A stretch of 64,000 bases of DNA from Gammaproteobacteria bacterium (GTDB lineage Bacteria > Pseudomonadota > Gammaproteobacteria > JBCCGL01): contig OZ255836.1 in assembly GCA_965277715.1 (NCBI GenBank), forward strand, positions 128,001 to 192,000, in the 5' to 3' direction. Below, in pieces: positions 1 through 17,990 of this stretch (position 1 is the stretch's first letter; each line of letters starts with the position of its first letter). Both the position numbers and the translations under genes were made by a program. The notes under the pieces are model-generated. The model ran no database searches. It worked only from the letters and a program-made list of their open reading frames with translations, and was not told where the DNA came from.

Positions 1-728
1 TCCAGTAGCTCTTTGCGCTGGCGGTATTCGATACTGGCAAACCGAGCTTTTTGTAACTCAATAGAACTTTTTGTTATTTCTGCCTTACTTACATAATTTT
101 TTGCCAGTAAAGCCTCGCGTGCGCTGTGGCTTGCCTGAATTAAGGGTTCTATTTCCTTTGCCTGAAGAGCCTGGGTTTTTGCGTAACGCATTTCAGCTAG
201 GAGTTCAACTCTCTCTCTCTCCATATTGTCAAGTTGGTCTTTAATAGTGGAGAGGCGCTGGATAATCCAAGCACGCTGAAGTGGCTGTACTGATTCATCT
301 TCCGGTATTTTTCGGTGAATCTCCACCAAATTAAGCTGTTTAAAATCCTCGAACTCAAAACGATTAACAGCACTATACAAAATCAATTGGGATTGGACAC
401 TCTGTAGTTCTGCCTCTATTTCACGCAATTGCGCACGTAAGCTACGATCATCCATCTGAATCAGTATCTCACCCTGTTTGATCCGTTGGCCATCATGCAC
501 TGCCAGCTTTGATACTACACCAGACCGGGCGGCACGGAGGGTTTTTACTTTACCACTGGGAATAATATGCCCTTTAGCTGTAGTAATCACATCAATTGAT
601 GTAAAAATAGCCATCGTAATCGCAACAATCACAGTGATAATCACCGACACTGGCATAATCGAAGAGCCTGGCAGTATCGGTCGTTGTTGCGTCATTAAAT
701 GCTCAGGATGGAAATTTAGCTTTGGCAT
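1..728 (-). CDS. HlyD-family type I secretion membrane fusion protein (runs off window start)
   Basis: Manual translation from ATG at 728: MPKLNFHPEHLMTQQRP...TM segment...IDVITTAKGHIIPSGKVKTLRAARSGVVSKLAVHDGQRIKQGEILIQMD, the typical HlyD N-terminus; directly downstream of the ABC exporter. Confidence 0.85.
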   Translation of the reverse strand, partial: MPKLNFHPEHLMTQQRPILPGSSIMPVSVIITVIVAITMAIFTSIDVITTAKGHIIPSGKVKTLRAARSGVVSKLAVHDGQRIKQGEILIQMDDRSLRAQLREIEAELQSVQSQLILYSAVNRFEFEDFKQLNLVEIHRKIPEDESVQPLQRAWIIQRLSTIKDQLDNMERERVELLAEMRYAKTQALQAKEIEPLIQASHSAREALLAKNYVSKAEITKSSIELQKARFASIEYRQRKELL

Positions 729-733
729 AAGTA

Positions 734-2485
734 TCAATCTACCATTGCCAAAATACGCGAAGAAACGCCTGTCTGGTATTGACATAAGCGACTATATACC
801 CCTTCGTGCTTTATCAAATCCAGGTGTTGGCCTTGCTCAACGATTTCCCCCGCTTGCATAACCACAATACGATCACAGAGACGTGCCAGTGACAAACGGT
901 GAGTTACGATAATAACCGTTTTTTGCCGCCCTAAAGTCTGCAAGTTATCGATCACTTTCGCCTCAGTTTCATAGTCTAGCGCACTACTCGCCTCGTCTAG
1001 TATCAAAAGCGGTGTATCGGCGGCAATAGCACGCGCCAGCGCAATACGCTGTACTTGGCCGCCGGAAAAGTTATGCCCACCTTCCATCACCGGGCTGTAA
1101 TAGCCTTTCGGCAATGTATCAACAAACTGATCAATGCAGGCGATACGTGCAGCCCTGCGCATTACTTCATCATTTGGTGCGTCACAGGCATAGAGAATAT
1201 TACTGGCAATCGTGCCACTGAAGAGTATATTGCGCTGCAACACATAAGAAACTTGTCCACGAACCGATGCGATATCAAGCGTGCGTATTTCATGACCATC
1301 AAGATAGATCCCTCCTTTATACTCATCGTAAGCCAATGATAAAAGTTTTACCAACGTACTTTTACCTGCGCCTGATTCGCCGAGTAGGCACACGCGTTCG
1401 CCGTGGTGAATCTCCATATTAATATTTTTTAACGCCGATGACGAATGTTCAGGATAAGTAAAAGAAAGCTGCCTGAACTCTATAAGACGCTGAAACTTAT
1501 CTGCCATCCGGTAAGAGGTCTGTGTAGCGCTTTGTTCAATCTGGTGTGCAAGCACAGTATTCAAACGTTCGACAGACAGGCGAAAAGCCAGTATCTCCTC
1601 CCAGATGGAAGCGAGCCGGATAAGCGGACTGGTTACCCGGTCTTTCAGCATATTAAAAGCCACCAGCGCGCCAAGCGTGAGGTTCTGTTCCAACACCAGA
1701 GTAGCGCCAACATACAAAACAAATACCTCGGATACCACTCCAATAAACTCCGAGGTACGTTCCGACCACATGCCTACCTGCGCCAACCTGTACGACTTTC
1801 GCAGACGCTTATCCAGTGTTCTGAAAATACCATCCACTCCAGCGGCCGTTTTATTGCTCGCACGAACGGTTTCAATCCCTTGCAAACACTCGATTACCCA
1901 GGATTGATGTTGTACACCGGCTGCAAAATTTTCCTTTTCGCGATGCTTTAGTGTTTTACCGAATAAAAAATACTGACCCGCATGTAAAGGAACGGTTGCC
2001 AATACTATCAGCGACAGTGGCATGCTCAAAGAAAGCATCACCAGTAAAAAAATGAGCATAAAAAGCAAGTCCACAGCCAGTGACAATACCCAGCTACTGA
2101 GTATGCCGCGAATGGCATCCAATTCTGCCGAGCGCGATACGATCTCACCTACTGGCGTGCGATCAAAATATGATTTTTTGAGTTTAAAGAGGTGGCGATA
2201 AAATACACCGGCTGACTCGCTGCCCATGCCGATTCCAACCCATTGAGACACGCGAAACTGCGCCACTTTCAGCAGCTGTGTCAACACTGCCGTAGTCAAC
2301 AGTATTATCAAGATAACGGTTAAAGTCGCATAACCTTCAGACACCAACACACGGTCAATTACCGCCATAAACGACAATGGTGTCGCTAATGACAGAGTAT
2401 TTAGGACAACGCCAATTAGCGCGGTCCAAGCAAGCAACCGGGCATAGCGACGAAATAGACCAGCAAAGAGGCTTTTGGATCCCAC
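734..2485 (-). CDS. HlyB-like type I secretion ABC transporter lacking an N-terminal C39 peptidase domain
   Basis: TM domain begins at the N-terminus (VIDRVLV); Walker A GESGAGKST, signature FSGGQVQR, Walker B LLILDEA; 583 aa. Confidence 0.9.
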   Translation of the reverse strand: MGSKSLFAGLFRRYARLLAWTALIGVVLNTLSLATPLSFMAVIDRVLVSEGYATLTVILIILLTTAVLTQLLKVAQFRVSQWVGIGMGSESAGVFYRHLFKLKKSYFDRTPVGEIVSRSAELDAIRGILSSWVLSLAVDLLFMLIFLLVMLSLSMPLSLIVLATVPLHAGQYFLFGKTLKHREKENFAAGVQHQSWVIECLQGIETVRASNKTAAGVDGIFRTLDKRLRKSYRLAQVGMWSERTSEFIGVVSEVFVLYVGATLVLEQNLTLGALVAFNMLKDRVTSPLIRLASIWEEILAFRLSVERLNTVLAHQIEQSATQTSYRMADKFQRLIEFRQLSFTYPEHSSSALKNINMEIHHGERVCLLGESGAGKSTLVKLLSLAYDEYKGGIYLDGHEIRTLDIASVRGQVSYVLQRNILFSGTIASNILYACDAPNDEVMRRAARIACIDQFVDTLPKGYYSPVMEGGHNFSGGQVQRIALARAIAADTPLLILDEASSALDYETEAKVIDNLQTLGRQKTVIIVTHRLSLARLCDRIVVMQAGEIVEQGQHLDLIKHEGVYSRLCQYQTGVSSRILAMVD

Positions 2486-2508: not shown

Positions 2509-5277
2509 TTAAGGCAACCATATAAAGCGCGACTGCGCACTCCGCTTGCCCACCAGAACCTGGAGCACACGTTGTAATGCATCGGGAGCAGGTGCCACTG
2601 TTCTGGCTGCTATGTTAAATATATAGCGAGGTGTAAATCCGGTTATTGTCGTTGAGGCTACTTCTTGCGCAACTATAGCCGGATTTTTATAAAGCCTCTT
2701 CAACCTGTTGAGTTGATTTTTTTTCCATTGTGCTAACTGCGTTGGTTCTGGGGTTGTTTTCGCTAATTTCCTCAATAAGATGTCGATAGTATCAATGATC
2801 TCGTCGACATTTCCTGGGTCGCAGGCAAAGCGGATTATCAGTGTATAAACATCCTGCTCCGATGCAGCACCATCTATAGTAGTGTTAATGGCGTACACAA
2901 GGCTTCGTTGCTCGCGTATCTCAGTTAATAGCACACCCTGAAGCCAGAGCCTGATAAAATCCATTTTATCTGAATTCATATCAGGCAAGGCTGGCTTTTC
3001 GATCTCATAGCGTAACATGACACTGGCTTCTTTTTGTCCGCTACCACTCACCCGGATATCTGCATTATTTTTCGGTCGCGGAAAAAAGCGAACGCTGTCT
3101 TTTTCAATCATGTTGGTAACAACTGGCAATGTTGCGAGACTCCGCAAAACTGCTGGTCGGAGGGTTGGCTCCAGAATATCGCCGACGATGGCTATACGAT
3201 AATTTTGCGCACCCTTGAAATAACGTTGATAAACAGTGCTCACAGCTTGCATATCAATCGAGTTTAGCTCGTCTAGTGTCATCACACGCAAGGCCGCATC
3301 GCGGTTGAAAAGTTCAACTCCCAGTGCATCCTGCCAAGGCTTGGCTGGATTTCGTAGAAACCGCTCAAGGTCGGCACGGTTTTTCGCTTTGTAGTGTCGC
3401 CACGCAGTTGAATCGATCCGCGCTTCGGTTAGAGCGATATGTAGTAGCCGTAGGAGTGTATCGATATCTTCGCTTTTGCCGCTGCCGTTAATACCCCGGT
3501 TAAAGTAGGCAAAGTAAGGCTGTAACCCGGCATTATGATTGTTTAGCCAGTCATTGAATTCGGCCGCGTTTTTATCACGTAAACCACTGGCAGCAATGGT
3601 ATCCAACGCCAACCTCGCGTGCAGGGTTTGAGCTTCTGACAATCGATTCAGCCCACCTGCACCCGCTAGGCTGTAGTGCACTCTGCCGGGGGACCCACCG
3701 CTATATTGGTGCCATACGACAATACCATTACTCAAAGTCCACTCGGTCACCCCTCCAGGCAGTACACGCGTACCAACAATACTACCCTTCACAGCCGGAG
3801 AAATAGACCAGTCTTCGCTCGCTTGTATGGGCACCTGCGCAGCGGAAAATCGGGTTTTATCGACGCTTAGCCACCGTTCAACATGCGCCTGCTCTGTCGG
3901 ATCGGGCCTATCGGCGTGTACCAACAGGACGTGTGGATGACTATCCATAACCTGTGAGACTGCGTTATCGATATCCTCAATCCGCACATTTGCCAATTGT
4001 TCTTCTATTAGCGAGTACCATTGTCTGGCACGAACGATGGGGACACCATAGAGAAAGTTGTGCATGGCGGCGTCGGCCAGGCTGTGCGCGGAATCCCATT
4101 TCACGCGTTGCTCCGCCAAGTAAGCAGTCCGCCAATTATCCAGTTCGATCTGTGTAATGCCTTGCGACAATAGTTGCGCTCGCTCTTCCGCTAGAATGCG
4201 TGTTGCGGTTTCAAAATTTCCCGACGACAATATCGCCTTGAGCGAAACACGCAGCACCTCTGGCGATTCTTGCCGCCACTGGGTATAAAAGTTGCCCACC
4301 GCGCCCTCGGTCGCCTGCAATCGATGATTCAGGCGTCGTCTGAGTATCTTTAAGCCTGCCTGCCAAAGCGCAGCCCTGTAGAGTTTGTCGTGCGTTGTAG
4401 GTCGTGCCATGCGACTAAAGTGATCGAATGATACAGACTCCTCATGCGTGTGTTTATCATTGATAATGAGTGTTTCCGGAAGAGTGTCGATATTGATATT
4501 GTATACTCCAGGGCTGCCGGATAGCTGGGGTGCCCAGTCGGAGAATTTTTCTTTTATCATCTCGATTATTTTGGAAGTGCTGGAAATATCGCCTGTTACG
4601 ATTATTGCGGCATTGTCGGGGCGATACCAACGCTGGTAGTAAGCCCGTAGTGTGCTTGGCTTGGCCGATTCGATACTTTCTAGGGTACCGATGGGATAGC
4701 GCTCAGCGTAGCGACTGTTGCGGTACAGTGCCTGCCAGCGTGCATCATTATCTTCTCGTAAGCGCCACTCCTCACGCACAATCGGTATCTCGCTGGCAAG
4801 CACGTCGGGGGGGAAGCGGATATACCTTGCCCATTGAGTCAACAGATCAATTGCGAAGGCTATATCGCTGTCAGTCGGATCTTCAAGCCTCAGCCAGTAG
4901 GTTGTATGGTCAAAATAAGTGGCGGCATTACTGTGCTGGATAAACGAGATGCCCCGTTTTTTCAACTGTTCGAACAACTGTTGATTAGGGTAATCACGAG
5001 TTGAGTTAAATGCCATATGCTCAACGATATGAGCATGGCCTTGTTGCTCATCCGTTTCGTGTAATGAACCAGATTTTATTACAAGACGAGCTTCCACTAC
5101 TCTAACACTAGCACTTGAATATTTGTTTTTTAAGACTGTAATCGTCATTTTATTGCGAAGAACTCCGGAGTAATCTCCGGCGAACGCCTCTTTGTTTGCT
5201 TTAAATAATGCGAAGGAAAAGATCGTTAGGATGAAAAGTAAAAAAGTAAAAAATTTGATATTTATTTTTAGTTTCAT
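2509..5277 (-). CDS. M16 family zinc peptidase (PqqL-like) with N-terminal signal/anchor
   Basis: Inverted zinc motif HIVEH, NAATYFDHT, RYPIG, YYQRWYRPDNAAIIVTGD; hydrophobic N-terminus; 922 aa. Confidence 0.9.
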   Translation of the reverse strand: MKLKINIKFFTFLLFILTIFSFALFKANKEAFAGDYSGVLRNKMTITVLKNKYSSASVRVVEARLVIKSGSLHETDEQQGHAHIVEHMAFNSTRDYPNQQLFEQLKKRGISFIQHSNAATYFDHTTYWLRLEDPTDSDIAFAIDLLTQWARYIRFPPDVLASEIPIVREEWRLREDNDARWQALYRNSRYAERYPIGTLESIESAKPSTLRAYYQRWYRPDNAAIIVTGDISSTSKIIEMIKEKFSDWAPQLSGSPGVYNINIDTLPETLIINDKHTHEESVSFDHFSRMARPTTHDKLYRAALWQAGLKILRRRLNHRLQATEGAVGNFYTQWRQESPEVLRVSLKAILSSGNFETATRILAEERAQLLSQGITQIELDNWRTAYLAEQRVKWDSAHSLADAAMHNFLYGVPIVRARQWYSLIEEQLANVRIEDIDNAVSQVMDSHPHVLLVHADRPDPTEQAHVERWLSVDKTRFSAAQVPIQASEDWSISPAVKGSIVGTRVLPGGVTEWTLSNGIVVWHQYSGGSPGRVHYSLAGAGGLNRLSEAQTLHARLALDTIAASGLRDKNAAEFNDWLNNHNAGLQPYFAYFNRGINGSGKSEDIDTLLRLLHIALTEARIDSTAWRHYKAKNRADLERFLRNPAKPWQDALGVELFNRDAALRVMTLDELNSIDMQAVSTVYQRYFKGAQNYRIAIVGDILEPTLRPAVLRSLATLPVVTNMIEKDSVRFFPRPKNNADIRVSGSGQKEASVMLRYEIEKPALPDMNSDKMDFIRLWLQGVLLTEIREQRSLVYAINTTIDGAASEQDVYTLIIRFACDPGNVDEIIDTIDILLRKLAKTTPEPTQLAQWKKNQLNRLKRLYKNPAIVAQEVASTTITGFTPRYIFNIAARTVAPAPDALQRVLQVLVGKRSAQSRFIWLP

Positions 5278-5340: not shown

Positions 5341-6582
5341 TCATCGAATAAAAACAATATTAGGTATCTCCTCTGTCCTGGATATAGCCCTGATTAATTC
5401 GCGGCATGAGTCTTCCTTTGAGCAGTCATATCTGTTGCTGATAAATATTGTAATCATGTCAGAAGTTGAAAAATATGCAGACATTATAACTTGCGAAGCC
5501 AAGTAAGCCTGAGCAAAAATCCGAGGCGGCAACTTGGAAAGGTTGGAACGATCTACAGCGCTTGAGCTAACCTCAAAACCACCTAAGTCGGATTGAATAT
5601 CAGAAATCCAGTTGTTAATCGAATTTAATAAGTCGTTGTTGGAGGATTTCTGCTGTTCCGTATCGATAATATTTGCAAAATGCAAAGATGTGTTTTTTAA
5701 ATCTTTTTTCAATATTTCGATAATTTTTAATCTGTGTCGCTGCGCTCCATCCCAGATAAGGTAATTTCTAGCATCAATCTCTTGTTGTTTGTCCTGAATC
5801 TCTATTGAATTAAATTTCAATTTTTGACGGCAAGCAAGACAGACTGACTGATAATAATCAGCCTCCGAAGGTGAAAACCATTTCAACTGTTTAAAGCCAG
5901 CGGCACATAATCTCTGAGACAGTTCCGCAGGTGTGATAGCTCGCCGTTTCATGGAGATAATTTTCGCGGGTGCCATGGACTTGTCTGGAACCACGAAATA
6001 ACTGCAATCGTGTATTGGAGATCTCGGTGAGCCTTGCCAAATTCGTCTTTGAAAATACAGTATGTTGCCTTTTTCACGACTAACTGGAGCAACATTTGAT
6101 AGGGCAATATCCGGCTCCTCAATCATTAGTTTTCCATAGTCATATATTCCAATAACAGCTATGCCATCTGGTTTTAAACAGTTAAATATCTTTTCTATAC
6201 AGGTTTCCAACTCTGTATCTTCAAGAAAATGAGTGATAAAACTTGAGAGAACAAAAGCAATATCATATTTCTCTTTAAATTCTCTTTCTAAAAAATCTGT
6301 GCACTCTAACTGGATATTTAGATTCTGTTTTTTTGCAAGCTGTCTCGCTACTGCCAAACTCTTTTTACTAAAATCGATCCCTGTGACTTTATGGCCCATC
6401 TGTGCAAGGGCAACGGTGACCTGCCCCGTTCCACATCCAACTTCTAAAATTCGTTGCCCGGCAGGTAAATCTGAGAATATACGAAAGTACAATCTATGTA
6501 CCTCATCAATACCTCCATTTTCTTGGCGGTGCATTAAGTCGTAGTCCTCTGACCAGTCATCATATATATTTTTATACGACAT
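5341..6582 (-). CDS. Class I SAM-dependent methyltransferase with C-terminal degenerate QueC-like domain
   Basis: Motif I ILEVGCGTG, VTGIDFS; likely start MSYKNIYDDW at 6582; C-terminal ~140 aa resemble ORF 7608..8270. Confidence 0.8.
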   Translation of the reverse strand: MSYKNIYDDWSEDYDLMHRQENGGIDEVHRLYFRIFSDLPAGQRILEVGCGTGQVTVALAQMGHKVTGIDFSKKSLAVARQLAKKQNLNIQLECTDFLEREFKEKYDIAFVLSSFITHFLEDTELETCIEKIFNCLKPDGIAVIGIYDYGKLMIEEPDIALSNVAPVSREKGNILYFQRRIWQGSPRSPIHDCSYFVVPDKSMAPAKIISMKRRAITPAELSQRLCAAGFKQLKWFSPSEADYYQSVCLACRQKLKFNSIEIQDKQQEIDARNYLIWDGAQRHRLKIIEILKKDLKNTSLHFANIIDTEQQKSSNNDLLNSINNWISDIQSDLGGFEVSSSAVDRSNLSKLPPRIFAQAYLASQVIMSAYFSTSDMITIFISNRYDCSKEDSCRELIRAISRTEEIPNIVFIR

Positions 6583-7027
6583 GTCGTTTTGTCCCAAAGA
6601 TAGTGTCCCATAGACGAAAATACAGATCATAGTTTACTGAACAGTCCTGATGATGAATAAGGTGGTAGCGCCCCATCGCAAGTCCAGGTATGTTAATTCG
6701 TGGGTTATGATCAACGATGCCTTCGGCAAGAATGAAACCATCAATGTAATATAATACAGCAATCGGCCACGCCTGTGGCCACACCACCATTATGGCTAGT
6801 AAAGGTAAAATTTCAGTTATCCACTGATCTGTGGTAGCTTTCCAATCACCAAACCACCCAATAAGATTAAGCCAACTGAACTCACAGTCACCGGCATAAT
6901 TTACCACATGATGGCTTTTGTGAAACTTCCACAGAAAACTAAAACTGTGTGCTGCTCTATGCGTCCAGTAAATGATAAATGTAAAGAGAAAAAAACAGAT
7001 CGTTAAATTCAAAATGTATGAAATCAT
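6572..7027 (-). CDS. Sterol desaturase / fatty acid hydroxylase family membrane di-iron enzyme
   Basis: His boxes HRAAH, HKSHH, DHN, HLIHH and C-terminal WDTIFGT. Confidence 0.85.
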   Translation of the reverse strand: MISYILNLTICFFLFTFIIYWTHRAAHSFSFLWKFHKSHHVVNYAGDCEFSWLNLIGWFGDWKATTDQWITEILPLLAIMVVWPQAWPIAVLYYIDGFILAEGIVDHNPRINIPGLAMGRYHLIHHQDCSVNYDLYFRLWDTIFGTKRHVV

Positions 7028-7036: not shown

Positions 7037-7621
7037 TCAACCCCACTTACACCAAGTATCAGTAAAAACCACTTCGCAGCTATGGTGCCTGGTTAAAATA
7101 TTTCCGCGATTGAAATCCAAAGCATAATTGTAATTTCTAGCGCGTTCTCCCAGTGAGGTAGCGATATTTTTAAGTTCGGAATTTGAAGGAGGGTAATATT
7201 TAGGCCGGTCATCCAGTGATGCGTAGGCATAATTGATCGCCAAGTTTGTCTCTCCCCAAAAGGAACCATCTTTAGGTGCTGGAAATAAGCGTTCCATAAT
7301 AGTCATTGCCGAGATCCCATCATCATGATGGCTTAGGATGTTGGGAAGATATTTGCAATTGTTTTTTTTGGCAAAATCTACAAATCTAGTAAAAGCCTCA
7401 CAGCTTATGCCTATTCGGACTACCGTTCTTTCATCTAATCTGTCGAAAACAATAGCATCGTCCCCTCTACCAATTTCAGAAAAAGATTGCTTGTATATAT
7501 CTTCCAGCTGTGAGGCAGCAACAAGCCAAGCTGGATGTAGTGAAGTCTTCTGTGTTGCCTCGTCGTTAGGTAGTAGCCTGGTGGTGTTATCACAAGTAGA
7601 AATTAGTTTACTGGAGTGCAT
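7037..7621 (-). CDS. Small protein-kinase-like fold protein
   Basis: Gly loop IGRGDDAIV, hinge IMERL, catalytic-loop-like DFNRGNIL, metal-binding VVFTD. Confidence 0.55.
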   Translation of the reverse strand: MHSSKLISTCDNTTRLLPNDEATQKTSLHPAWLVAASQLEDIYKQSFSEIGRGDDAIVFDRLDERTVVRIGISCEAFTRFVDFAKKNNCKYLPNILSHHDDGISAMTIMERLFPAPKDGSFWGETNLAINYAYASLDDRPKYYPPSNSELKNIATSLGERARNYNYALDFNRGNILTRHHSCEVVFTDTWCKWG

Positions 7622-8270
7622 CTTTTATCCTTTCATTATGAGAGACAGAACTTAAAGTGATACATTCAGGACATCTCTGGCAACTAGAGAATGTATCTAC
7701 TTCATCATCATAGGAAGGGTTTCTGCAACTTGCAGTAAATTTAAAGATATCATCTGGCAAATAATTCACCTCTTCCTGTTTTGTTGGGGGATAAGGCCAC
7801 AAAAAACACTGTGGATGATCTTCGTTCCCCCAGATCAACCTTAAAATACGCACTGTGTAAGCGCGAAGAAACTGATAAATCTCGCTACCAGGATTCCAAC
7901 TCTTGTCTTCATCACTGTTCATGCTCAATAAAATGCGATCTTTACGGCAGAAAGAATGTGAAAGCGCTGAGTGTGCAGAAAAAAACATGGCGGTGGAGGT
8001 GTCTCTCGCAAAGTTCCTGAAACTTGTTAAGTTCACACTACTGCTGTCAAAGTGAAACTCCCTATATCTACTTAATAAGATAGGATGCATAAAGGAAATT
8101 GCCCGATCTTCGTAGGGTGCTGTATATGTCTTTTTCTTTCCGGTATCATCCAAAGCATATCGACTAATGTGGTGAGCATAAACATCGTCGTTAGTTTCGC
8201 GGAGAAGGCGAACCAATCCATAAGTACTGTCCAGTCCACCGCTCCACATTACAAGCGTTTTACGTTTCAT
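7608..8270 (-). CDS. QueC-like PP-loop ATP pyrophosphatase
   Basis: N-terminal LVMWSGGLDST PP-loop and C-terminal Cys cluster SC-x-CQRCPEC as in QueC. Confidence 0.8.
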   Translation of the reverse strand: MKRKTLVMWSGGLDSTYGLVRLLRETNDDVYAHHISRYALDDTGKKKTYTAPYEDRAISFMHPILLSRYREFHFDSSSVNLTSFRNFARDTSTAMFFSAHSALSHSFCRKDRILLSMNSDEDKSWNPGSEIYQFLRAYTVRILRLIWGNEDHPQCFLWPYPPTKQEEVNYLPDDIFKFTASCRNPSYDDEVDTFSSCQRCPECITLSSVSHNERIKDALQ

Positions 8271-8452: not shown

Positions 8453-8647
8453 TCAGCGTGTGCTAAGCCAATTGCTCAGAGGGTTAATTATCATATAAAA
8501 TACAACCAAATAAATGAGAAAAAATGTAACTAACTCCACATAGGACAAGCTTTTTTCTGACATGAAAAGGACCAAAATAAAATAAATAACCGTAGAAATA
8601 ATCGTACTAAGAAGTGACATATATATATTTTTTCTTTTGATAAACAT
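8453..8647 (-). CDS. Small two-TM membrane protein, candidate immunity protein
   Basis: 64 aa, two hydrophobic helices, RBS-like GGAG upstream, just downstream of the precursor. Confidence 0.55.
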   Translation of the reverse strand: MFIKRKNIYMSLLSTIISTVIYFILVLFMSEKSLSYVELVTFFLIYLVVFYMIINPLSNWLSTR

Positions 8648-9025: not shown

Positions 9026-9364
9026 TTATTGACCCCCGCCACCATAACCGTTGCCGTTACGACCAGCACCGGCATAGCCGCGGGGATTACTAAGGCCAGA
9101 GGGATCACCAAAACAATTATCTGATCCGAGAGCGCCGACTACACCACCGCTCACCCCGCCAGCCACCGCGCCTGATAAAGCACCAGGTCCGCACCCGACG
9201 CCACCAGCAAGCGAACCTGCGGCACAGCCACCGGCTGCACCACCAATGGCTCCCTGCGCAGCAGCTGTTCCAATGTCACCGGCGCAGCTTCCACCACCTC
9301 CACCGCCCCCACCAAAACTGGTGGGTTCAAAAAGATCATCAAAACGAACATTTTCTAATTTCAT
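9026..9364 (-). CDS. Glycine-rich microcin/glycine-zipper bacteriocin-like precursor peptide
   Basis: Charged 17-aa leader, Gly8, GxxxG repeats (GAIGGAAGG, GALSGAVAGGVSGGVVGALG), 4 Cys; strong RBS GAGGAG; embedded in an export/modification cluster. Confidence 0.8.
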   Translation of the reverse strand: MKLENVRFDDLFEPTSFGGGGGGGGSCAGDIGTAAAQGAIGGAAGGCAAGSLAGGVGCGPGALSGAVAGGVSGGVVGALGSDNCFGDPSGLSNPRGYAGAGRNGNGYGGGGQ

Positions 9365-9519: not shown

Positions 9520-10656
9520 TTAATATCTCCAGAAATAACTGACCGACATGTTATGACTGTCAAGCGCATGCGCCTGATAAAACCAGCCAACGGGTTGAAT
9601 AAATAAATCACCAGGGTTCAGTATTATCGATAAGCATTTACTAGATTTCGACAATGGAAACAGTTGATAATCAGGTATCTCAGGTTTAAACCAACACGTC
9701 TGATAACTGTTATATCCCAGCATAGGGTAGAGCAGTTCTGATTGATCAGCTGAATATAAATCCAGTCGTTTACGCCCAATTACCTGACCCAGAAATTTGT
9801 GAAAGGGGTTGCGATGTAGATCTGATACTAGTAGGCGTGTCGGTATTATCCCCAACGATAACTTTGGAGGAGTGAAATCACCGTGATCAAAGTACGGTGG
9901 CCCAAAATCGGCAAACATTTCCACAGGCAAATTGACATTTTCGACATAAAGTTTCGAGAAAACATTGACCGCAACCTTCCGGGAGCTAGGTTTCAAACTC
10001 TTAAGCTCTTTGGCGAGTTCCCGAATAGTCTGCTGCGAAAACGTTGTGTGGAAGGGAATAACAACATCAGCATAGCGCTCAACTAAACATTCAAACGTCC
10101 AGTTCCTATATGGAACAATATTTTGTATTCCGTGAACTATCGTTGGCATACCTGCTTCCATCTGCTCTAGCACTTGCATTTGCGTTGGGCTTTCCAAATT
10201 AGTGGGCTGTTCAAGCTTTGCGTACCCCTTCAACATGTGTGTTTTTTCCGCACAACGCAGTCGCCTTTGCGTCTGTATCGACGGTCTCAAACAGGCTTTT
10301 GATAAATGTTTGACGAGATTAAGATCCCCCGAGAACTCCACTGCACCAACAATATCAGGCGCACACCAGTCAAAATACTCGCATTCATCAACAATTTGCC
10401 TGAGTGTTGTGATCGGCATACCAATCTCGGCTGCCACAGGAATACCCTGCTCCAGTTTCGACATAATACGCAGATGCTGCTGGTCAAATATGGCGAAAAA
10501 AGTGCTCTCAGGATATTCAAATATCCGAAACTGAACTGCCCCTCGTATACCGTAAGGGTTTTCAAAACCCTCCTGCAATAATTGGGCAAAAAGTGATATA
10601 GCTTCAACATTTGACTGCTGCACTTGTTCATGAGATAGATGACTCATGCATGACAC
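9520..10656 (-). CDS. SCP2-like + JmjC/cupin-8 domain protein
   Basis: C-terminal JmjC pattern (LHRNP..KFLGQVIGRKR, LNPGDLFIQPVGWF..SVSYFW); N-terminal region resembles the SCP2 lipid-binding fold (VEFSGDLNLV). Confidence 0.7.
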   Translation of the reverse strand: MSCMSHLSHEQVQQSNVEAISLFAQLLQEGFENPYGIRGAVQFRIFEYPESTFFAIFDQQHLRIMSKLEQGIPVAAEIGMPITTLRQIVDECEYFDWCAPDIVGAVEFSGDLNLVKHLSKACLRPSIQTQRRLRCAEKTHMLKGYAKLEQPTNLESPTQMQVLEQMEAGMPTIVHGIQNIVPYRNWTFECLVERYADVVIPFHTTFSQQTIRELAKELKSLKPSSRKVAVNVFSKLYVENVNLPVEMFADFGPPYFDHGDFTPPKLSLGIIPTRLLVSDLHRNPFHKFLGQVIGRKRLDLYSADQSELLYPMLGYNSYQTCWFKPEIPDYQLFPLSKSSKCLSIILNPGDLFIQPVGWFYQAHALDSHNMSVSYFWRY

Positions 10657-11093
10657 TCGCGGGAAAATGTACGAACTTTACTGCCTGTCCAGCGATTGAC
10701 CTTGCGCACTGAACCGTCTGAATTTCGGCGTAGGCTACTTGCAACCTGATTGGGGAATACGTTATTAGTCATGTCGCGTACGATGTCCTTGATGTTGCCG
10801 TGAGGCGTGATCCAGTCGTTAAAAAACAGCCTGTCACCACACTGCCATTCGCCACTGCAGAGTGAACGGCCCGTGATACAAATCGCTTGCTCAATACTGG
10901 TTGATAGCCACGCCCAGGTGACCATAGCGGTTGGCAAACCATCGCCATTTAAATAGATTCGTGCCTGATTAACGTTAAGCGCAGGCAATATTTCGGTGCG
11001 CATATACTTCCCTAGTTGAAATCGGCTGTGGTAACTGGATTGCGCCAGCAATTCGAGGGCATAGGCGGTGCTAGTGTAGTAGTCGAGGATCAC
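10644..11093 (-). CDS. HlyC-family toxin-activating acyltransferase
   Basis: QSSYH active-site motif, PTAMVTWAWLS, WQCGDRLFFNDWITPHG. Confidence 0.9.
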   Translation of the reverse strand: MILDYYTSTAYALELLAQSSYHSRFQLGKYMRTEILPALNVNQARIYLNGDGLPTAMVTWAWLSTSIEQAICITGRSLCSGEWQCGDRLFFNDWITPHGNIKDIVRDMTNNVFPNQVASSLRRNSDGSVRKVNRWTGSKVRTFSRECHA

Positions 11094-12250
11094 CAGATCA
11101 CCTGCTTTCTTTGTCCACCATGCCGATCAACAAACATTGCCGACACGACCTTGTTACCAAACTGTTTACGCAGTGATTTAAGCAAACTTAAATGATCACC
11201 GAATGGTGCCGATAGTTTTGTTACATATAATCTATCCTGCGGATATCCACCAACTTCCCAAGCTATATAGCCGACAGGTTTACCTTTGTCAAAATGGATA
11301 AAAATCCTATTTTCGAATAGTTTTTCGCGAGCACTCAAGTAGTATTCATATATGGTCTTTTCTGGCTCTCCATGTGCATAATCCGTATCCAGCAGCAACA
11401 TTGCACCCAAACGTCGATAAATTTCACAAGTAGATATATCACCCACTGATTGTAGGGGGAAGTCCGGCAAATAATTTTCCCGATTACAACTGATTGATGC
11501 ATAGGGAATTATATTGCCCAAAAGTTCACTTAAGGCTTGCCCCGTGTATAGAGACCAAAGACTGGCAGCGTTACATTCTCTGTTCAGAACAATCGCGGCA
11601 ACACGTGCTAAGGGATAGTTCCAACGATATAAGTAAGTTTTGCCCGCCGATTTTAGTGCACTACGCAAACATTGTGCATCATCCAACAGATAAGCCCTAT
11701 TATCCCTCTCCCAGACAATACACATACTAGCATATAGTGCAGGCTGGTCATTTTTGACATAATCCATTAGTGCCTGTTCACCAATAAATGCACAAATTTC
11801 ACGATCAACTGGTGAAGCTACTGCAATTGGAGACACAATAGACTGTACTGCATGCGAAAATTCATGCGCCAGATTGAGTAGATCTCTTGCACTACCTCGA
11901 TAAGGGCAATAAATACGGGGGCGAGAAGTATCCGAATGATCAGTAAAAGGCTGCTTTATCACAGTAGCCTCACAACCGTATTCAACCAATGTCGAAGATT
12001 GCACATTTTGAATAGCTGCCGATTGATGTGGAAACCGTGCCGCAAGCGTAGTTGCCACAAAATCCAAAGCATCCGGCATGCGAATATTGGTAAGCTGAGC
12101 TGTGTTTTGAGTACTATAGTTTTCTTTTTCCTGCTCTTGAACGAGGCTCGCTGCTTCCGCTAGAAGATCCACACAATCTAGAACACTCAAACCCGTAAGC
12201 GACAACCAATCCTCAAGTGTAAATCGCTTTCCGTTATTTTCATCATTCAT
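11090..12250 (-). CDS. HEXXH metallopeptidase-like domain fused to a degenerate HlyC-like domain
   Basis: LAHEFSHAVQ with downstream EICAFIGE; C-terminus GKPVGYIAW...DRLYVTKLSAPFGD matches the HlyC pattern. Confidence 0.65.
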   Translation of the reverse strand: MNDENNGKRFTLEDWLSLTGLSVLDCVDLLAEAASLVQEQEKENYSTQNTAQLTNIRMPDALDFVATTLAARFPHQSAAIQNVQSSTLVEYGCEATVIKQPFTDHSDTSRPRIYCPYRGSARDLLNLAHEFSHAVQSIVSPIAVASPVDREICAFIGEQALMDYVKNDQPALYASMCIVWERDNRAYLLDDAQCLRSALKSAGKTYLYRWNYPLARVAAIVLNRECNAASLWSLYTGQALSELLGNIIPYASISCNRENYLPDFPLQSVGDISTCEIYRRLGAMLLLDTDYAHGEPEKTIYEYYLSAREKLFENRIFIHFDKGKPVGYIAWEVGGYPQDRLYVTKLSAPFGDHLSLLKSLRKQFGNKVVSAMFVDRHGGQRKQVIW

Positions 12251-12735
12251 AGCAATCCTAACTTCACTAAAATTCCAAATAAACCTTCCCCAAAATATTA
12301 GATTCGTTAATCGATTTTGTCAACAGTCAGTTTTGTTTAATAGCAATTTTCACAGAAAAATAAATTTAAATAATTGATTTTATGAGATAATTTTTTAACG
12401 CAACAACAAAATCAACAGTTTATACGATCATGGCGTGTCAAAAAAACAGCTTGACGGTTTTAGCCTATCTTTGACAATTTATGCCTTATTTATTCACATT
12501 ACTATGCATGCTAGTTGGTTCCTGTGGGTTAAAGGGTGCTTGTGCTGGCAACAAATAACCTACCATAGAACCAGCTTTTTTTGTAATTACTTCAAATGCT
12601 TACAGCATAAGGAAGTGCCATTCGAGTATGAGATCATGATTACAAATCACTAGGAAATAATGAGGTAATTATTCCTTGCAGATCATATAAAATACCACTG
12701 CTGTCCCGTTAAGAGGAAATAAAGAGATCTGAATA

Positions 12736-12955: not shown

Positions 12956-14484
12956 CAATACCGCTACCTCAGGTTTAACCCAATGAATCTTTTAGCCTCT
13001 GAGAGGCCTTGATACGAGGTTCAGTTAACAGTGGGTAGGCTTTTGGTCGTCGTTTAATTGCCCTTGGTTGGGGTGATCGTTTTCTCCTGCCAATTAACGT
13101 TGAAGCGATTATCCTTAATAAGGAAGTGTACGCTTTTTGTATCATACTGGATGTTGAATGGATGAATTTAATATGAGCAATACCCAGTAGCTGTACCGTT
13201 GCCTTAAAACTTATTTGACGTGCTACTTCACCCTCTGTTTTTGCTGACTCTGCCATGCTACCCCGAATCAGGTTATAAGCCATAAAGGTTGTTGCTATTT
13301 CTTTTTCAACCATATCGGGTGAATGGCATCGCAACATATCCATTTTCAAATCTATTTTAATTGTACGAAAATCCAATTCAACTTTCCAACGTTCCTTATA
13401 CAGTGTTGAAAGCTCTTTCTTAGGGTAAGTATCAACCTCCAACAAAGTGCTAACATAGACTGTCCCATCCACTGAAAATTCTCGAACTGTCAGTGTTTTC
13501 GGCAATAGATCAAAGTCTGATTGCGACATCCAAACCGGTTTTCTTTTAGGTTTTTCCCACTCGATAAGATGATCTTTTGCACCAAGCGTTAACCCTGTTT
13601 TGTAATCCGCTTTCTTTTGTGCGTGATTCATTGAGACGAATGCAACCCCTTTCGATTGTAGAGCCGCTAAGACAGCATAAGTACAGTAATAGCGGTCTGC
13701 CAGTAACAGATCATTGGCGGTTAATGACGTCATCAGGGTACTGAATAATGACATTTCCCCTGTTCCCTTTCCTTGATACTCTCCCATTGCATAATCAATA
13801 ATAGCGCCAGAACTTAAAGAAATGAGTCCGACTATTCGAGCAATAGGAAAACCTAAACCCGGTTTTTGAGTCTGTTGCTGGGGGTATTTATGTTGATTTT
13901 TCTGGGTATCAGGCATGAGAACAGTGGTTCCATCCACAAGCACCACATTATACCCTTTCCATGTCCAAATTTTACCTGCTCTGGCATGTAACGTTGAACC
14001 GATTGAACGTACCTCCTGAAGTACCCACGACAGAGATAAACGTTGACGGGCTTTACAGTAAGGACCGCTATTAAAAGAACTTGGAAGCAGGTTTTCATGT
14101 AAACGATCAACTAGCAGACGGGCGACTGTTTCTTTACAACTGCCATTATCACTTAACACCTGCCAGAGAAATAAACGCAGTGTAACAAGTGGGGTGAATA
14201 CCCGGTCTCGATAGCTGCCCGATAGTTCGCTTAGGTCGTTTAGACGCTTGGAACAGAGTAAATTATTAAAGTCTCCTGTGTTTAACTGAAAAAAAACACG
14301 TTTGATCGTTTTAATTTGCTGTCGGATAGTGAATTTCATAGAATAGGTCAGCGTTAGGTTTTTTGGCGAAGTACTTGTGTGTTTTGTCGCTTACAAGGAT
14401 ACTTCAAAAGGAAACCTAACGTTACCCATCTATATGACTTTTAACGTTATTTTAGTTCTTCACCAAGCTGAGGTAGCGGTATTG
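12956..14484 (-). mobile_element. IS4-family insertion sequence (complete)
   Basis: 17-bp TIRs CAATACCGCTACCTCAG / CTGAGGTAGCGGTATTG flanking a DDE transposase. Confidence 0.9.
12975..14339 (-). CDS. IS4-family DDE transposase
   Basis: VDGTT, LADRYY, YKERWKVELDFR (YREK-type motif). Confidence 0.92.
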   Translation of the reverse strand: MKFTIRQQIKTIKRVFFQLNTGDFNNLLCSKRLNDLSELSGSYRDRVFTPLVTLRLFLWQVLSDNGSCKETVARLLVDRLHENLLPSSFNSGPYCKARQRLSLSWVLQEVRSIGSTLHARAGKIWTWKGYNVVLVDGTTVLMPDTQKNQHKYPQQQTQKPGLGFPIARIVGLISLSSGAIIDYAMGEYQGKGTGEMSLFSTLMTSLTANDLLLADRYYCTYAVLAALQSKGVAFVSMNHAQKKADYKTGLTLGAKDHLIEWEKPKRKPVWMSQSDFDLLPKTLTVREFSVDGTVYVSTLLEVDTYPKKELSTLYKERWKVELDFRTIKIDLKMDMLRCHSPDMVEKEIATTFMAYNLIRGSMAESAKTEGEVARQISFKATVQLLGIAHIKFIHSTSSMIQKAYTSLLRIIASTLIGRRKRSPQPRAIKRRPKAYPLLTEPRIKASQRLKDSLG

Positions 14485-14497: not shown

Positions 14498-15202
14498 ATG
14501 CTTATTCATAAAAAAAGTGACTACGATATTCTTGCTATTACCCGCAACGAGTACATCGCCAAAGATGTCACGCTTTGGCACAAGATCAAAGATGAATGCA
14601 CCAAGCTGAACGTCAGCGCCTATGTTCGCATTCTCGCCCGTGATATTGAGTTTATTAATTACAAGCTTCATCAGGGACAGTACTTTTTTACCGAGATCAT
14701 ACAACAGGGTATCGCGCTTTATGACAGTGGAAATGTAGAGCTGGATGAAAAGCGACCGCTTGACCCTGCTGAAGAAAAGCGGATCATTCAAGCGGATTTG
14801 GATGAGGCTTTTTCAGCCGCTAAAGAATTTTATGAAGGCTGCGAATGGAATATGACAAAAGAGTACTTCAAGAGAGCTGCTTTCAATCTTCATCAGGCGT
14901 GTGAACATGCCTACAAAACTATTCTGCTGATTTTTGCAGGAGAAAGCCCACAAGAACACCATCTGAATGTTTTGGGCGATATGGCGGCAGACTACTGCCC
15001 AGATTTAGTTGGTGTAATACCCCGTGAAACCCCCGAACAAAAAGCGCTGTTTGAATTGTTGGACTATGCGTATATTGGTGCTCGTTATGATCGGAGTTAT
15101 AAAATTACCCAAGAGCAGTTGGCAGTTTTGATTCCCTGTGTGAAAAAACTGCATGAAGTGGTCGAGAAATGTAGTAGTGAGCGTATGGCGGGTTTTTGTT
15201 GA
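14498..15202 (+). pseudogene. Nucleotidyltransferase-HEPN fusion, 5' truncated by the IS
   Basis: Paralogous to 33814..34677 (SDYDIL, LLDYAYIGARYD) but lacks the FGSYARG N-terminus; begins 13 bp after the IS end. Confidence 0.7.
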
Positions 15203-15223: not shown

Positions 15224-15943
15224 TTAATCTTTCAGCCAATCCGCATATGCCTCGACATCAATCATTGGTACCGTCCCGGCCATTTGTAATTGGGAGATCA
15301 GGCGAAATAGAAAACCCGTAGCTGCTGTTCTATCAGTATTGATCTGATATTTATCTGTTTTTTGATTCAAATAAAAAAAACCGTGTGAAGCAATACAGCC
15401 TAAATCAAGGTGTCCGCCCTCACTAGAACTGAGCGATTTGTCAAAGGAGTCACCGAATGGCGGTTTCCACTCAGATTCAAAAGTCAGCATCCCACCCAAG
15501 ATGTGGAACGGTTTTTTTGCCGGATATTTACCTCCAGCGTGTGGGATGGGTAAACTTGTTCGCTTCAGCCTACGAACGCTTGCAATTTTTTCCCGAGAAT
15601 AAGCGACGAGGCTTGCATTCATTGTCTGCTTGGCTTCAAAAACACCGTATACACTCTCAGCAGGGATGACCGTTGAGCCTTTGAATTTTTGAATAAATGG
15701 TGAGTATTGGCGATCAAAGATCACGACATCTATCTGATCGCTAAAGGTTCCCTCGCTATCTACAACGTGAGCTTTCTTTGCGTGATACCTAGCCGGAAGG
15801 TATTCCTGAAGCAACTCAAGCCAGACGCCTTCACTAGCATCTCCTTTCTCTGAAGGATGACCAATGCCCCTAGCTCGACACAACTGCCCCTGAATGTCGC
15901 TGTGCAGATGACCCAAGATTGTTTTGAGATTCCACTCTGTCAT
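15224..15943 (-). CDS. nucC: NucC cyclic-oligonucleotide-activated endonuclease
   Basis: Close match to the NucC sequence as I recall it: HPSEKGDASEGVW, QIDVVIFDRQYSPFI, PAESVYGVFEAKQ, RTSLPIPHAGG, GTVPMID. Confidence 0.9.
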   Translation of the reverse strand: MTEWNLKTILGHLHSDIQGQLCRARGIGHPSEKGDASEGVWLELLQEYLPARYHAKKAHVVDSEGTFSDQIDVVIFDRQYSPFIQKFKGSTVIPAESVYGVFEAKQTMNASLVAYSREKIASVRRLKRTSLPIPHAGGKYPAKKPFHILGGMLTFESEWKPPFGDSFDKSLSSSEGGHLDLGCIASHGFFYLNQKTDKYQINTDRTAATGFLFRLISQLQMAGTVPMIDVEAYADWLKD

Positions 15944-16235: not shown

Positions 16236-17990
16236 TTAATCCACATCACTGGTGACGCGAATCACTTCGTCGATGGTGGTGACGCCCTGCTGTGCCATGT
16301 GCAGGGCACGACGCGACAGGTTGGTGTAGTCCTGCTGTTGTCCGATGGCGTGGGTGAACCTGCGCAGGTCATCGTTGCGCAGCGCGACTTTGGCGTCGTG
16401 GCCGAGGATTAACAGTTCGTAGGTGCCGGTTCGACCGTCGAATCCGCTATTGTTACAGCGTGGGCAACCGTCGCCACGAAAAAACGACAGGGTGTTGCTG
16501 TCCAGATCGGGGAACAGGGTTTCCAGCCACACGTGCTGGGCATCCTCAATGCTGTGCGGTACTCGGCACTTTTCACAAATGCGGCGCACCAGGCGCTGCG
16601 CCAGAATACCGGAGAGCGAGGTCGCCAGCAGGTATCCTTTGGCGCCAATGTCGATCAGGCGGGCGATGGTACTGGCGGCACTGTTGGTGTGCAGGGTGGA
16701 CATCACCAGGTGCCCGGTGATCGATGCGCGCACGCCTATCTCGGCAGTTTCCAGGTCGTGCATTTCACCGATCAGGAGCACATCCGGGTCCTGGCGTAGC
16801 GCGGTACGCAGCACCCGTGAAAATGTCAGGCCAATTTTTTCGTTGATCTGCACCTGATTGATCCGCGCCATTTGGTTTTCGATGGGATCTTCGACAGTAA
16901 TGATTTTTCGATCCGGTGTGTTCAATTCCTGTAGGCAGGAATACAGGGTGGTGGTTTTACCGCTGCCCGTTGGCCCGGTGACCAATATCAGGCCGTGGGG
17001 TTGATTGATCAGACGGCGGAGTTTTTTGATCATACCCGTGGGTATGCCGAGCTGATCCAGCGTCAGTTGCCCGGCGGTTTGGTCGAGCAGCCGCATGACC
17101 ACTGATTCACCGTGCTGCACGGGCATGGTTGAGAGCCGCACATCGAGGTTGTGGCGTTTTACTTTGATATGGAAACGGCCATCCTGTGGCAGGCGCTTTT
17201 CTGCAATATCCAGTTGCGCGAGGATTTTCAGGCGTTGTACCAGCGCCGGGGCAATGCGTGTTTCACTGACAATGTGTTCATTCAGTATGCCATCGACGCG
17301 TTGGCGTAGGCGCAATACCTGCTCGTCTGGCTCGATATGAATATCGGAGGCGCCCGCGTGTACGGCGTCTTCAAACATGGATTGCAGCAGTCGGAATACC
17401 GGGGTTTCAGAGGTTTTGGCACTGCGTATCAGCTCGTCGAGGTCGAGCTTGATACCACTGGCAGATAACTGCTCGTCGAGTGCTTCAGCGAGGCTGTCGA
17501 TTTCCTCTGTGCGCCGGTAAACGCTGTCGATACTGTGCAAAACATCGGTTTCGCGCACCACTGCCTGGTGCACACGGCGCTTTAGCTGGCGGCTGATTTC
17601 ATCAAAGGCGTACAGGTTGGTGGGGTCGGCCATGCCCACCAGCGCCTGTGTGTCATCCATCTCCAGCACCAGGGCGCGGAAGCGGCGCGCCGTGCTCTCG
17701 GGCAGTTTTTTGACGGTTCCGGTATCGAGCTTGTAATCGACCAGTTCTATAAACGGTATTTTGAGCTGCTGCGAGAGAAAATTGAGCAGATGGGTTTCCT
17801 GGATAATACCCAGTTCGATCAGTGTGTTACCGAGTTTGTTGCCGGTTTTTTCCTGCTCGACGAGGGCGCTTTGCAGTTGTGTCTGTGAAATGATTTCGTT
17901 CTGCACCAGCATATCGCCAAGGCGCAGTTTCTTTGCCAGTGGGGCTGTTTTTCCGTGGGTAATTAAACCGGGCGTTATTTCAGAGGTCAT
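16236..17990 (-). CDS. mshE: MshE/PilB/GspE-family extension ATPase with MshEN domain
   Basis: RLGDMLV...KLGNTL MshEN repeats; ASDIHIEP, GPTGSGKTTT, LRQDPD, TGHLVMSTLH, Cys tetrad. Confidence 0.8.
   Translation of the reverse strand: MTSEITPGLITHGKTAPLAKKLRLGDMLVQNEIISQTQLQSALVEQEKTGNKLGNTLIELGIIQETHLLNFLSQQLKIPFIELVDYKLDTGTVKKLPESTARRFRALVLEMDDTQALVGMADPTNLYAFDEISRQLKRRVHQAVVRETDVLHSIDSVYRRTEEIDSLAEALDEQLSASGIKLDLDELIRSAKTSETPVFRLLQSMFEDAVHAGASDIHIEPDEQVLRLRQRVDGILNEHIVSETRIAPALVQRLKILAQLDIAEKRLPQDGRFHIKVKRHNLDVRLSTMPVQHGESVVMRLLDQTAGQLTLDQLGIPTGMIKKLRRLINQPHGLILVTGPTGSGKTTTLYSCLQELNTPDRKIITVEDPIENQMARINQVQINEKIGLTFSRVLRTALRQDPDVLLIGEMHDLETAEIGVRASITGHLVMSTLHTNSAASTIARLIDIGAKGYLLATSLSGILAQRLVRRICEKCRVPHSIEDAQHVWLETLFPDLDSNTLSFFRGDGCPRCNNSGFDGRTGTYELLILGHDAKVALRNDDLRRFTHAIGQQQDYTNLSRRALHMAQQGVTTIDEVIRVTSDVD

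Follow-up and report, generated by a model that had tools for sequence, protein, structure and literature searches.

A peptidase fused to a pseudo-acyltransferase domain and its HlyC-type neighbor as a candidate maturation unit for glycine-rich peptides

Why should the gene of a HlyC-type toxin-activating acyltransferase (TAAT) share an operon with a small glycine-rich peptide, and why should it be preceded by a gene that joins a peptidase domain to a second, degenerate copy of the acyltransferase fold? The question is raised by a stretch of 64,000 nucleotides from a Gammaproteobacteria bacterium (GCA_965277715.1, contig OZ255836.1, positions 128,001 to 192,000), hereafter the window, in which positions are counted from the first letter. 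The operon lies on the minus strand, as do all of its genes given below, starts at 12250 and continues past the window start, with genes tightly spaced or overlapping throughout the open reading frame (ORF) list. Its first gene (11090..12250) encodes a fusion protein of 386 aa, recognized from the ORF list, an AlphaFold2 (AF2) model and its relatives, while the next (10644..11093) encodes a HlyC-type protein of 149 aa whose GTG start lies on the TGA stop of the first gene, giving a GTGA overlap. Judged by sequence, the core genes follow the order hlyC - A - B - D, except that a peptide replaces the RTX toxin and one extra gene comes first. We consider it very probable that the 386-aa and 149-aa proteins form one functional unit. 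An earlier note on this DNA had described the overlapping tandem gene pair, with which the start/stop overlap agrees, and had proposed a heterodimer that couples proteolysis to acylation of the new N-terminus.

The 149-aa protein is a canonical TAAT with an intact catalytic dyad. It matched the Pfam HlyC family (PF02794) at E 1e-25 and 90.5 bits (cut-off 25) over model positions 8-127 of 127, and ApxC (PDB 4WHN) at E 1.1e-15. In the ApxC alignment SSYH (S19 S20 Y21 H22) falls on ApxC SPLH and NDW (N92 D93 W94) on ApxC IDW, the Asp of which we take to be the catalytic Asp93. H22, N92 and D93 were invariant in 27/27 aligned members of its subfamily, and both observations agree with the earlier note, which had seen the SSxH and DW catalytic positions retained in 10644..11093. 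The protein therefore combines a full-domain match above the curated threshold with the His/Asp dyad. Members of the subfamily are about 60% identical to it, come from marine Alpha- and Gammaproteobacteria, and carry only the generic name 'toxin-activating lysine-acyltransferase'. TAATs work with a His/Asp dyad (the catalytic His of ApxC is numbered His24) and use acyl-acyl carrier protein (acyl-ACP) as the donor, and those characterized to date place the acyl group on lysine side chains, in RTX toxins and CdiA (PMC8510554, in part).

The N-terminal domain of the fusion protein (residues 1-258; 11477..12250) was assigned as a peptidase from its fold match and from profile alignment with hhalign. 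It carries the motif HEFSH at residues 129-133 (nt 11852-11866) with E151 and E158 downstream, as the earlier note had claimed for a HEFSH motif followed by a Glu. Among 61 relatives, H129, E130, H133, R150, E151, Y208, N211 and Y212 were invariant (61/61) and E158 was present in 60/61. The AF2 model of the 386-aa protein, built on these 61 relatives (pLDDT 86, pTM 0.79), placed residues 3-256 closest to M3B oligoendopeptidase F, with Z 15.6 over 250 aligned residues against 2h1j_A (VIA-align; parts of its residues 130-547 are covered) and Z 14.4 against 3ce2_A (VIA-align; Foldseek 3ce2 E 9.7e-4), with M32, M2 and M3A enzymes ranking behind. Because helical models may reach Z ~13 by chance with this fold tool, the sequence evidence for M3 kinship matters. 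The family profile aligned to a bona fide PepF, which has Pfam Peptidase_M3 and M3_N, at a probability of 97.3% and E 2.5e-11 (hhalign), with HExxH on HExxH and E151 on the Glu of the PepF 'AETAS' segment. In M3 enzymes this Glu serves as third zinc ligand, and E151 is likely its counterpart; the HExxH thus has its Glu about 20-25 residues downstream, as in M3 enzymes.

The domain is otherwise far from a complete M3 enzyme. No Pfam M3 match was found for the 386-aa protein at E<=1, TIGR02290 scored 19.7 bits against a cut-off of 561.7, and a PDB sequence search with the 386-aa protein returned nothing meaningful (best E 0.064, Cas9/WDR5 noise). At about 250 aa it also falls short of the two-lobed enzyme of about 600 aa that encloses a substrate channel. 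We read it as a truncated M3 relative, below curated M3 thresholds, and as probably still catalytic, since the zinc-binding and catalytic residues are invariant in all 61 relatives.

The C-terminal domain (residues 272-386; 11093..11437) was assigned to the TAAT fold from a partial match of its last ~50 residues to Pfam HlyC (E 1.9e-7, 31.4 bits, cut-off 25, model positions 78-124) and from its modeled structure. Compared with ApxC 4whn_A it gave Z 11.1 with a root mean square deviation of 2.7 over 113 aligned residues, while the next GNAT structures reached Z<=8.8, and Foldseek of the fusion model gave 4whn_B with probability 1.00. ApxC was therefore the top GNAT-like match, which upholds the HlyC fold suggested earlier for this region. 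The segment VTKLSAPFGD aligned to FFNDWITPHGN of the neighboring HlyC, and hhalign mapping to the live HlyC subfamily placed K345 in the Asp column and E295 in the His column; the domain is about 20 residues shorter than HlyC, with one segment deleted (hhalign). Across the 61 relatives the Asp column held R in 31 and H in 14 and Asp in 0/61, and the His column held His in 5/61, which extends to the family the earlier observation that the catalytic residues are missing here (TKLSAPFGD). The domain thus has the TAAT fold and lacks the His/Asp dyad, with near-invariant positions elsewhere (P325, G327, Y328, W331, P349), and it is a pseudoenzyme, catalytically dead family-wide.

Such a domain could be a decaying duplicate of hlyC without a role, standing beside hlyC by chance juxtaposition, and the lost catalytic residues and deleted segment of about 20 residues fit this explanation. 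The near-invariant positions argue against it, as do the size and gene order of the family. An exhaustive profile search recovered 394 cluster representatives with E<=1e-3, of which 214 reached E<=1e-30, so the fusion family extends well beyond chance; a word-indexed protein search had found just 2 relatives of the fusion protein, which given these 394 marks the sensitivity limit of that search rather than a rarity of the family. We sorted the best 150 of the 394 representatives by architecture using our own domain hidden Markov models. The pseudo-TAAT domain was kept behind the peptidase in 88 of these 150, the peptidase stood alone in 48 (some perhaps fragments), a peptidase was joined to a full canonical HlyC domain in a single chain in 12, and the remaining 2 (P0041, P0069) were single chains of peptidase, pseudo-TAAT and HlyC. 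Scans of genome contigs and metagenome contigs turned up at least 7 and at least 3 loci, and ten loci were fetched; one of them (L010) duplicates another (L003), leaving 9 distinct loci from six Nitratireductor, one Pseudomonadota metagenome-assembled genome and two metagenome contigs. In 10/10 fetched loci (9 distinct), as in the window, a HlyC gene of the same subfamily directly follows the fusion gene. The fusion gene and hlyC are a conserved module, and with this adjacency and the natural fusions we find a functionless duplicate hardly credible.

The family is sparse. Two class samples of about 400 genomes held the family in the seed genome only (1/399 scored and 1/401). Four other matches in the 399-genome sample were short (profile positions ~49-178) and lay in open frames of 599-790 aa; one such short match, L014, was considered as a family member and rejected as an ordinary PepF (Peptidase_M3 + M3_N). 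In the ESM Atlas a cluster with score 0.97, probably the fusion family's own, is automatically named 'Peptidase M3A/M3B catalytic domain-containing protein'. A second cluster (score 0.81) consisted of M3-family fragments, 39% of whose members also had Acetyltransf_1 (GNAT), and peptidase-acyltransferase fusions may be a wider theme.

A complex model of the 386-aa and 149-aa proteins, both of which entered the prediction as alignments, reached an ipSAE of 0.79 (runs 0.80, 0.78, 0.79), against 0.00 for the best of 3 controls. The ipSAE mark used is reached by 116/157 solved complexes and by 2/215 mismatched pairs. The runs shared at least 93% of contacts, with a partner pLDDT of at least 86. In the modeled interface, residues 261-305 of the fusion protein meet residues 4-36 of HlyC, and because these segments are, by hhalign mapping, first helices that correspond to each other in the two TAAT folds, the modeled arrangement is pseudo-symmetric. 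ApxC is a dimer. The heterodimer of the earlier note is thus backed by this model, by the conserved adjacency and by the single-chain fusions (14/150), in keeping with a unit in which the dead domain would dock the peptidase onto the live enzyme.

The single-chain forms offer some further detail. Pfam recognized a full HlyC domain in all 14 long forms among 36 proteins scanned, a set hand-picked and enriched for long proteins. The linker of the 12 peptidase-HlyC proteins showed weak matches to the first helix of the pseudo-TAAT domain in 6 (P0077, P0094, P0106, P0111, P0120, P0121; about residues 305-377), with iE ~0.05 at best and mostly ~1-7, and the dead domain may be reduced to docking helices in these six. 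In one three-domain fusion, P0041 (529 aa), we observed a Gln at the catalytic His position (SGYQRR) of an otherwise canonical HlyC domain, while the other, P0069, retains the catalytic His; His-to-Ala mutants of TAATs keep residual activity (PMC8510554, in part).

What the pair acts on is suggested by the third gene downstream of the fusion gene (9026..9364), a glycine-rich precursor peptide of 112 aa found in the ORF list and by alignment to the precursors of the other loci. Its leader of 17 residues ends in TSF and is followed by poly-Gly and a Gly-rich core (41% Gly) without lysine; no Pfam or NCBIfam family was found for it. A precursor of this kind, with Ser-Phe followed by Gly-Gly (SF-GG), adjoins the pair in the window and in 8/9 distinct loci. 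The common plan is a leader that is short and acidic and closes with [V/T/F]-S-F, then G-G-(G/R)-G and a Gly-rich core, and S16, F17, G18, G19 and G21 were invariant in the 9 aligned precursors (window and 8 loci). A profile search added 14 further peptides (P0272-P0285), giving 22 distinct cores in total, with products of the 'A' gene ranging from 72 to 112 aa. SF was present in 22/22 of these cores and SFGG in 20/22, the exceptions being SFRR and SFSG. With Met1, or else the closest Met in frame, as its start and SF as its end, the leader is 17-18 residues long in 20/22, with 13 in P0284 and an ambiguous start in L006. This nearly fixed length means that the peptidase might measure from the precursor N-terminus, as some M3/M32 relatives do from a chain end. 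One relative matched Pfam Gly-zipper_Omp. From this association we judge it probable that the peptidase-TAAT unit acts on the SF-GG peptide.

A glycine-rich exported peptide served by a HlyC-family enzyme and a partner also recalls the microcin ligases, in which MceI/MchD works only with its partner MceJ/MchC (PMC3281104, PMC6071977, both in part). By analogy the pair would join a non-peptide moiety, siderophore-like or other, to the peptide C-terminus, with the peptide as acyl donor for the HlyC-like enzyme. The parallel with MceI and MceJ that the earlier note drew does not hold as homology, and MceJ homology of the fusion protein was ruled out: MceJ/MchC is a SelO-like protein of kinase fold (PMC3281104, in part), whereas the partner here is M3-like, so the analogy can be functional only. 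The C-termini of the precursors are not conserved, and no Ser-rich C-terminus was found. Among the 12 cluster ORFs scanned there was no glycosyltransferase or esterase, nor were siderophore-tailoring Pfam families found, and the minimal loci hold nothing able to make a second moiety. We regard ligation of this kind as very unlikely.

If the leader is removed, the exporter does not appear to be the protease. The window encodes a HlyB-type ABC exporter of 583 aa (734..2485; TIGR01846 E 1.4e-139), followed by a HlyD-family type I secretion adaptor that runs off the window end (3..785; TIGR01843 E 5.8e-29). The ABC protein aligned to the HlyB model TIGR01846 over positions 128-694 of 694, its Pfam ABC_membrane domain starts at residue 26, and its TIGR01193 match begins at model position 147; in the Nitratireductor locus L001 the ABC protein aligned to positions 124-667. 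By these alignments both exporters lack an N-terminal C39/CLD domain, and the C39 peptidase of an ABC transporter in a double-glycine-leader system was not found on them. In L001, where all ORFs were read, the cluster consists of the pair, the peptide, ABC and HlyD only, with no other peptidase seen, and none of the six Nitratireductor loci gave an M16 match in a BLAST scan. Because the exporter cannot cleave and no further peptidase was seen in the minimal loci, leader removal is best assigned to the mini-M3 domain as a candidate, and on our proposal the exporter would need no C39 domain because the leader would already be gone. On balance we favor, without great confidence, removal of the precursor leader by this peptidase.

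The main competitor on this point is that the HExxH/pseudo-TAAT protein is a regulatory, scaffolding or proofreading subunit, which would offer the peptide to HlyC or, as self-protection, destroy peptide that is unmodified or stray, the leader being cut elsewhere (by the exported M16 or a host protease) or never. M16 genes do occur in the window (2509..5277; pitrilysin-type, 922 aa, Pfam M16 and M16_C), in L002 and in L009, and the beginning of an M16-like ORF is seen at the end of L008. N-terminal processing is also normally unneeded for cargo of type I secretion systems, and the truncated M3 domain (aligned range 3-256) lacks the second lobe that forms the PepF-type substrate channel. Set against this are the invariance of the zinc-binding and catalytic residues in all 61 relatives, the lack of an M16 match in the Nitratireductor loci, and the fact that nothing in the peptides is invariant except a short N-terminal motif, which stands at a constant distance from Met1. 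The first 60 residues of the window M16 protein look like a signal peptide by eye, so it is probably not cytoplasmic, and the N-termini of the L002 and L009 proteins look like lipoprotein signals, so that the M16 proteins of all three appear to be exported. We consider a role other than leader peptidase distinctly unlikely.

The acyl acceptor is a further question. There was no lysine after the motif in 16/22 distinct cores, so the usual TAAT acceptor is missing from most of them and the acceptor may differ; 14/22 had no Cys. Since lysine is missing from most cores and they show no other conserved feature, the amine freed by leader removal is the most economical acceptor. In RiPP lipopeptides (RiPPs being peptides made on ribosomes and modified after translation) of the GNAT type, N-terminal fatty acylation follows leader removal (PMC13647313, in part). 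Placement of the acyl group on the new alpha-amine is nevertheless a possibility that we doubt somewhat more than we believe. Alternatively, the same complex and substrate may be at work with the acyl group on a side chain (Ser/Thr/Cys or an occasional Lys near the core start), or acylation may precede leader removal, the peptidase being tethered only for hand-over. Every characterized TAAT in the consulted part of PMC8510554 modifies side chains, the Ser of the SF motif is invariant in 22/22, and L003 and L006 have a Lys within 8 residues of the motif. Leader Ser aside, the cores offer no conserved side-chain nucleophile, however, as the Lys and Cys counts illustrate, and no TAAT O- or S-acylation is reported in that part of PMC8510554. 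Side-chain acylation is an unlikely reading, if one to be taken seriously.

We can therefore sketch the following route for the pair. The products of the two genes would be the subunits of a peptide maturase in the cytoplasm, in which the dead TAAT domain pairs with the live TAAT through their equivalent N-terminal helices and so places the peptidase beside the acyltransferase. In the substrate, a leader of about 18 residues precedes a run of glycines and a glycine-zipper-like core, and the mini-M3 peptidase would remove this leader by a cut behind Phe or behind the next Gly-Gly; the invariant SF with variable next residues in 2/22 hints at the former, which is a guess. The TAAT would then move a fatty acyl group from acyl-ACP, most likely to the freed alpha-amine, and the lipopeptide would be exported through the HlyB/HlyD-type type I exporter, with the cupin, methyltransferase, fatty-acid hydroxylase and PP-loop protein of the window further decorating the product. 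The data are consistent with the earlier note's suggestion that proteolysis and acylation of the new N-terminus are coupled. Folds, residues, gene order and fusions are observed here and the dimer is modeled, while the substrate, its cleavage and the acyl donor and acceptor are inferred. As an entire chain, from a cytoplasmic peptidase-acyltransferase complex through leader removal to fatty acylation of the new N-terminal amine, the route is tentative, with doubt just outweighing belief.

Several points weigh against this route. The loci are few and 6/9 come from one genus. The solved ApxC entry 4WHN, which has four chains, may show through in the complex model, so that the model's pass may reflect likeness to a solved TAAT structure. 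Taken alone, the dead domain's hhalign link to HlyC is moderate (probability 55%, E 1.2e-4). Lysine is present in 6/22 cores, in L006 in a Gly-Lys context near the core start, and an alpha-amine acceptor would be new for TAATs, the characterized members of which use lysine side chains. Loss of the leader in the cytoplasm leaves the exporter's recognition of its cargo without explanation, and the M16 peptidases of the window, L002 and L009, like the incomplete M16-like ORF of L008, could be the true leader peptidases there. Finally, in L009 (7965-15319) the peptidase/pseudo-TAAT gene is accompanied by HlyC, ABC, HlyD and two M16 genes, but an SF-GG precursor ORF was not found there; the precursor of this locus may lie elsewhere or have been lost.

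The remaining operon genes of the window would be accessory to this core. A cupin/JmjC-like protein of 378 aa (9520..10656; Pfam Cupin_8 E 2e-18), likely a peptide hydroxylase, is common to the window and L008 only, where the homologue is 46% identical and in the same position. Beyond the precursor lie a two-helix membrane protein of 64 aa (8453..8647; a hydrophobic ORF with weak matches to transmembrane-type Pfam families), which is a candidate immunity protein; a PP-loop (SGGLDS)-like protein of 220 aa (7608..8270; sub-threshold QueC/QatC matches, residues 4-38), a candidate accessory tailoring enzyme; a protein of 194 aa without Pfam or NCBIfam match (7037..7621); a membrane protein of the fatty-acid-hydroxylase superfamily of 151 aa (6572..7027; Pfam FA_hydroxylase E 3e-15, weak OlsE match); and an S-adenosylmethionine-dependent methyltransferase of 429 aa with an additional C-terminal region (5341..6630; Pfam Methyltransf_25 E 7.9e-22). 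BLAST matches to the fatty-acid hydroxylase, methyltransferase, PP-loop protein and 194-aa protein were found in none of the fetched loci. A lipid on the product would fit the presence of the fatty-acid hydroxylase. In L002 an 83-aa transmembrane ORF occupies the same position as the 64-aa membrane protein. This locus encodes two small membrane proteins that resemble each other, the first immediately behind the precursor (12003-12254, 83 aa) and the second beyond HlyD (18997-19224, 75 aa); their genes are candidate immunity genes, possibly duplicated.

Around the operon, an IS4-family DDE transposase gene (12975..14339, minus strand; Pfam DDE_Tnp_1 E 3.4e-23) lies directly upstream of its first gene, and the peptide cluster may sit on or beside mobile DNA. 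Further along is a T2SSE-family ATPase with an MshEN domain (16236-17990, minus strand; E 5.5e-128 and 4.3e-14). GC is about 0.55 at this gene compared with about 0.40-0.45 in the peptide operon, a contrast that suggests that the operon is foreign to its surroundings. Between the transposase and this pilus/secretion ATPase gene, a HEPN-domain protein with a weak nucleotidyltransferase-like N-terminus adjoins a DUF6602 protein (E 1.9e-30), the two genes spanning 14498-15202 (plus strand) and 15224-15943 (minus strand), and they may be a small defense or toxin-antitoxin-type pair.

TAATs are known for the activation of RTX cytolysins and lately for CdiA, and MceI is the sole family member tied to a small peptide. 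In the literature searched, which left subscription journals and bioRxiv supplements outside, we found no description of a peptidase-tethered TAAT, of SF-GG precursors, or of TAAT-modified small peptides beyond MccE492/H47. If the proposed route is true, TAAT chemistry extends to small leader-bearing peptides that mostly have no lysine, and the fusion protein is a clear example of a pseudoenzyme domain that tethers a protease to a sister enzyme. The route would also assign a role to a family of 394 representatives known only by an automatic M3A/M3B name, explain a set of HlyB-type exporters without a C39/CLD domain, and provide a compact, genetically encodable route to lipidated peptides, of the kind sought by RiPP engineers, from two small proteins and an 18-residue leader. 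Its interest is chiefly to RiPP and RTX specialists. More speculatively, and we think it rather doubtful in this full form, the loci may represent an unrecognized class of ribosomal lipopeptide bacteriocins of marine Proteobacteria, in which a HlyC-type enzyme held by a pseudoenzyme tether acylates the alpha-amine of an N-terminal Gly after a mini-M3 cut at Ser-Phe/Gly-Gly, a bacterial counterpart of N-terminal glycine myristoylation within a hlyCABD-like secretion operon.

Set beside known systems, the locus shares features with several. Like class II microcins and double-glycine-leader bacteriocins it combines a short, acidic leader, with Gly-Gly at its end in most cases, with a Gly-rich core, an ABC and HlyD-type exporter and a small membrane protein possibly for immunity, whereas its exporter has no C39 peptidase and its invariant motif is Ser-Phe, with GG absent in 2/22. 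The peptidase domain resembles M3B PepF in its HExxH and downstream Glu, in its catalytic-lobe fold (Z 15.6) and in its profile (probability 97.3%), but has about 250 rather than about 600 residues, scores below Pfam and NCBIfam thresholds, and is fused to a TAAT fold. We know of no dead-domain tether to a peptidase in GNAT-dependent acylated RiPP systems. Those systems (lipolanthines, goadvionins, lipoavitides, aphotorhaptins; PMC13647313, in part) share the proposed order of leader removal followed by N-terminal fatty acylation, which is carried out by a classical GNAT there and would be by a TAAT here. MceI/MceJ (MchD/MchC) of microcins E492/H47 are likewise an obligate HlyC-family pair acting on a Gly-rich exported antibacterial peptide (PMC3281104, PMC6071977, both in part), but with a SelO/kinase-like partner (PMC3281104, in part), which is ATP-dependent, and modification of a C-terminal serine, in contrast to the M3-like peptidase and dead TAAT here. 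CdiC, which is the TAAT in contact-dependent inhibition loci of class IV, similarly shows recruitment to a non-RTX substrate, in a system of competition between bacteria, but it acylates one lysine of the very large CdiA and has no peptidase partner in the part of PMC8510554 consulted, whereas the substrate here would be a small leader-bearing peptide. The locus also resembles the RTX TAATs (HlyC, CyaC, ApxC; PF02794) in hlyCABD operons, with which it shares the His/Asp dyad, the C-A-B-D logic and the HlyB- and HlyD-type genes; it differs from them in the HlyB without a C39-like domain, in a small Gly-rich peptide that has no RTX repeats and is mostly lysine-free, and in the peptidase/pseudo-TAAT gene that stands before hlyC.

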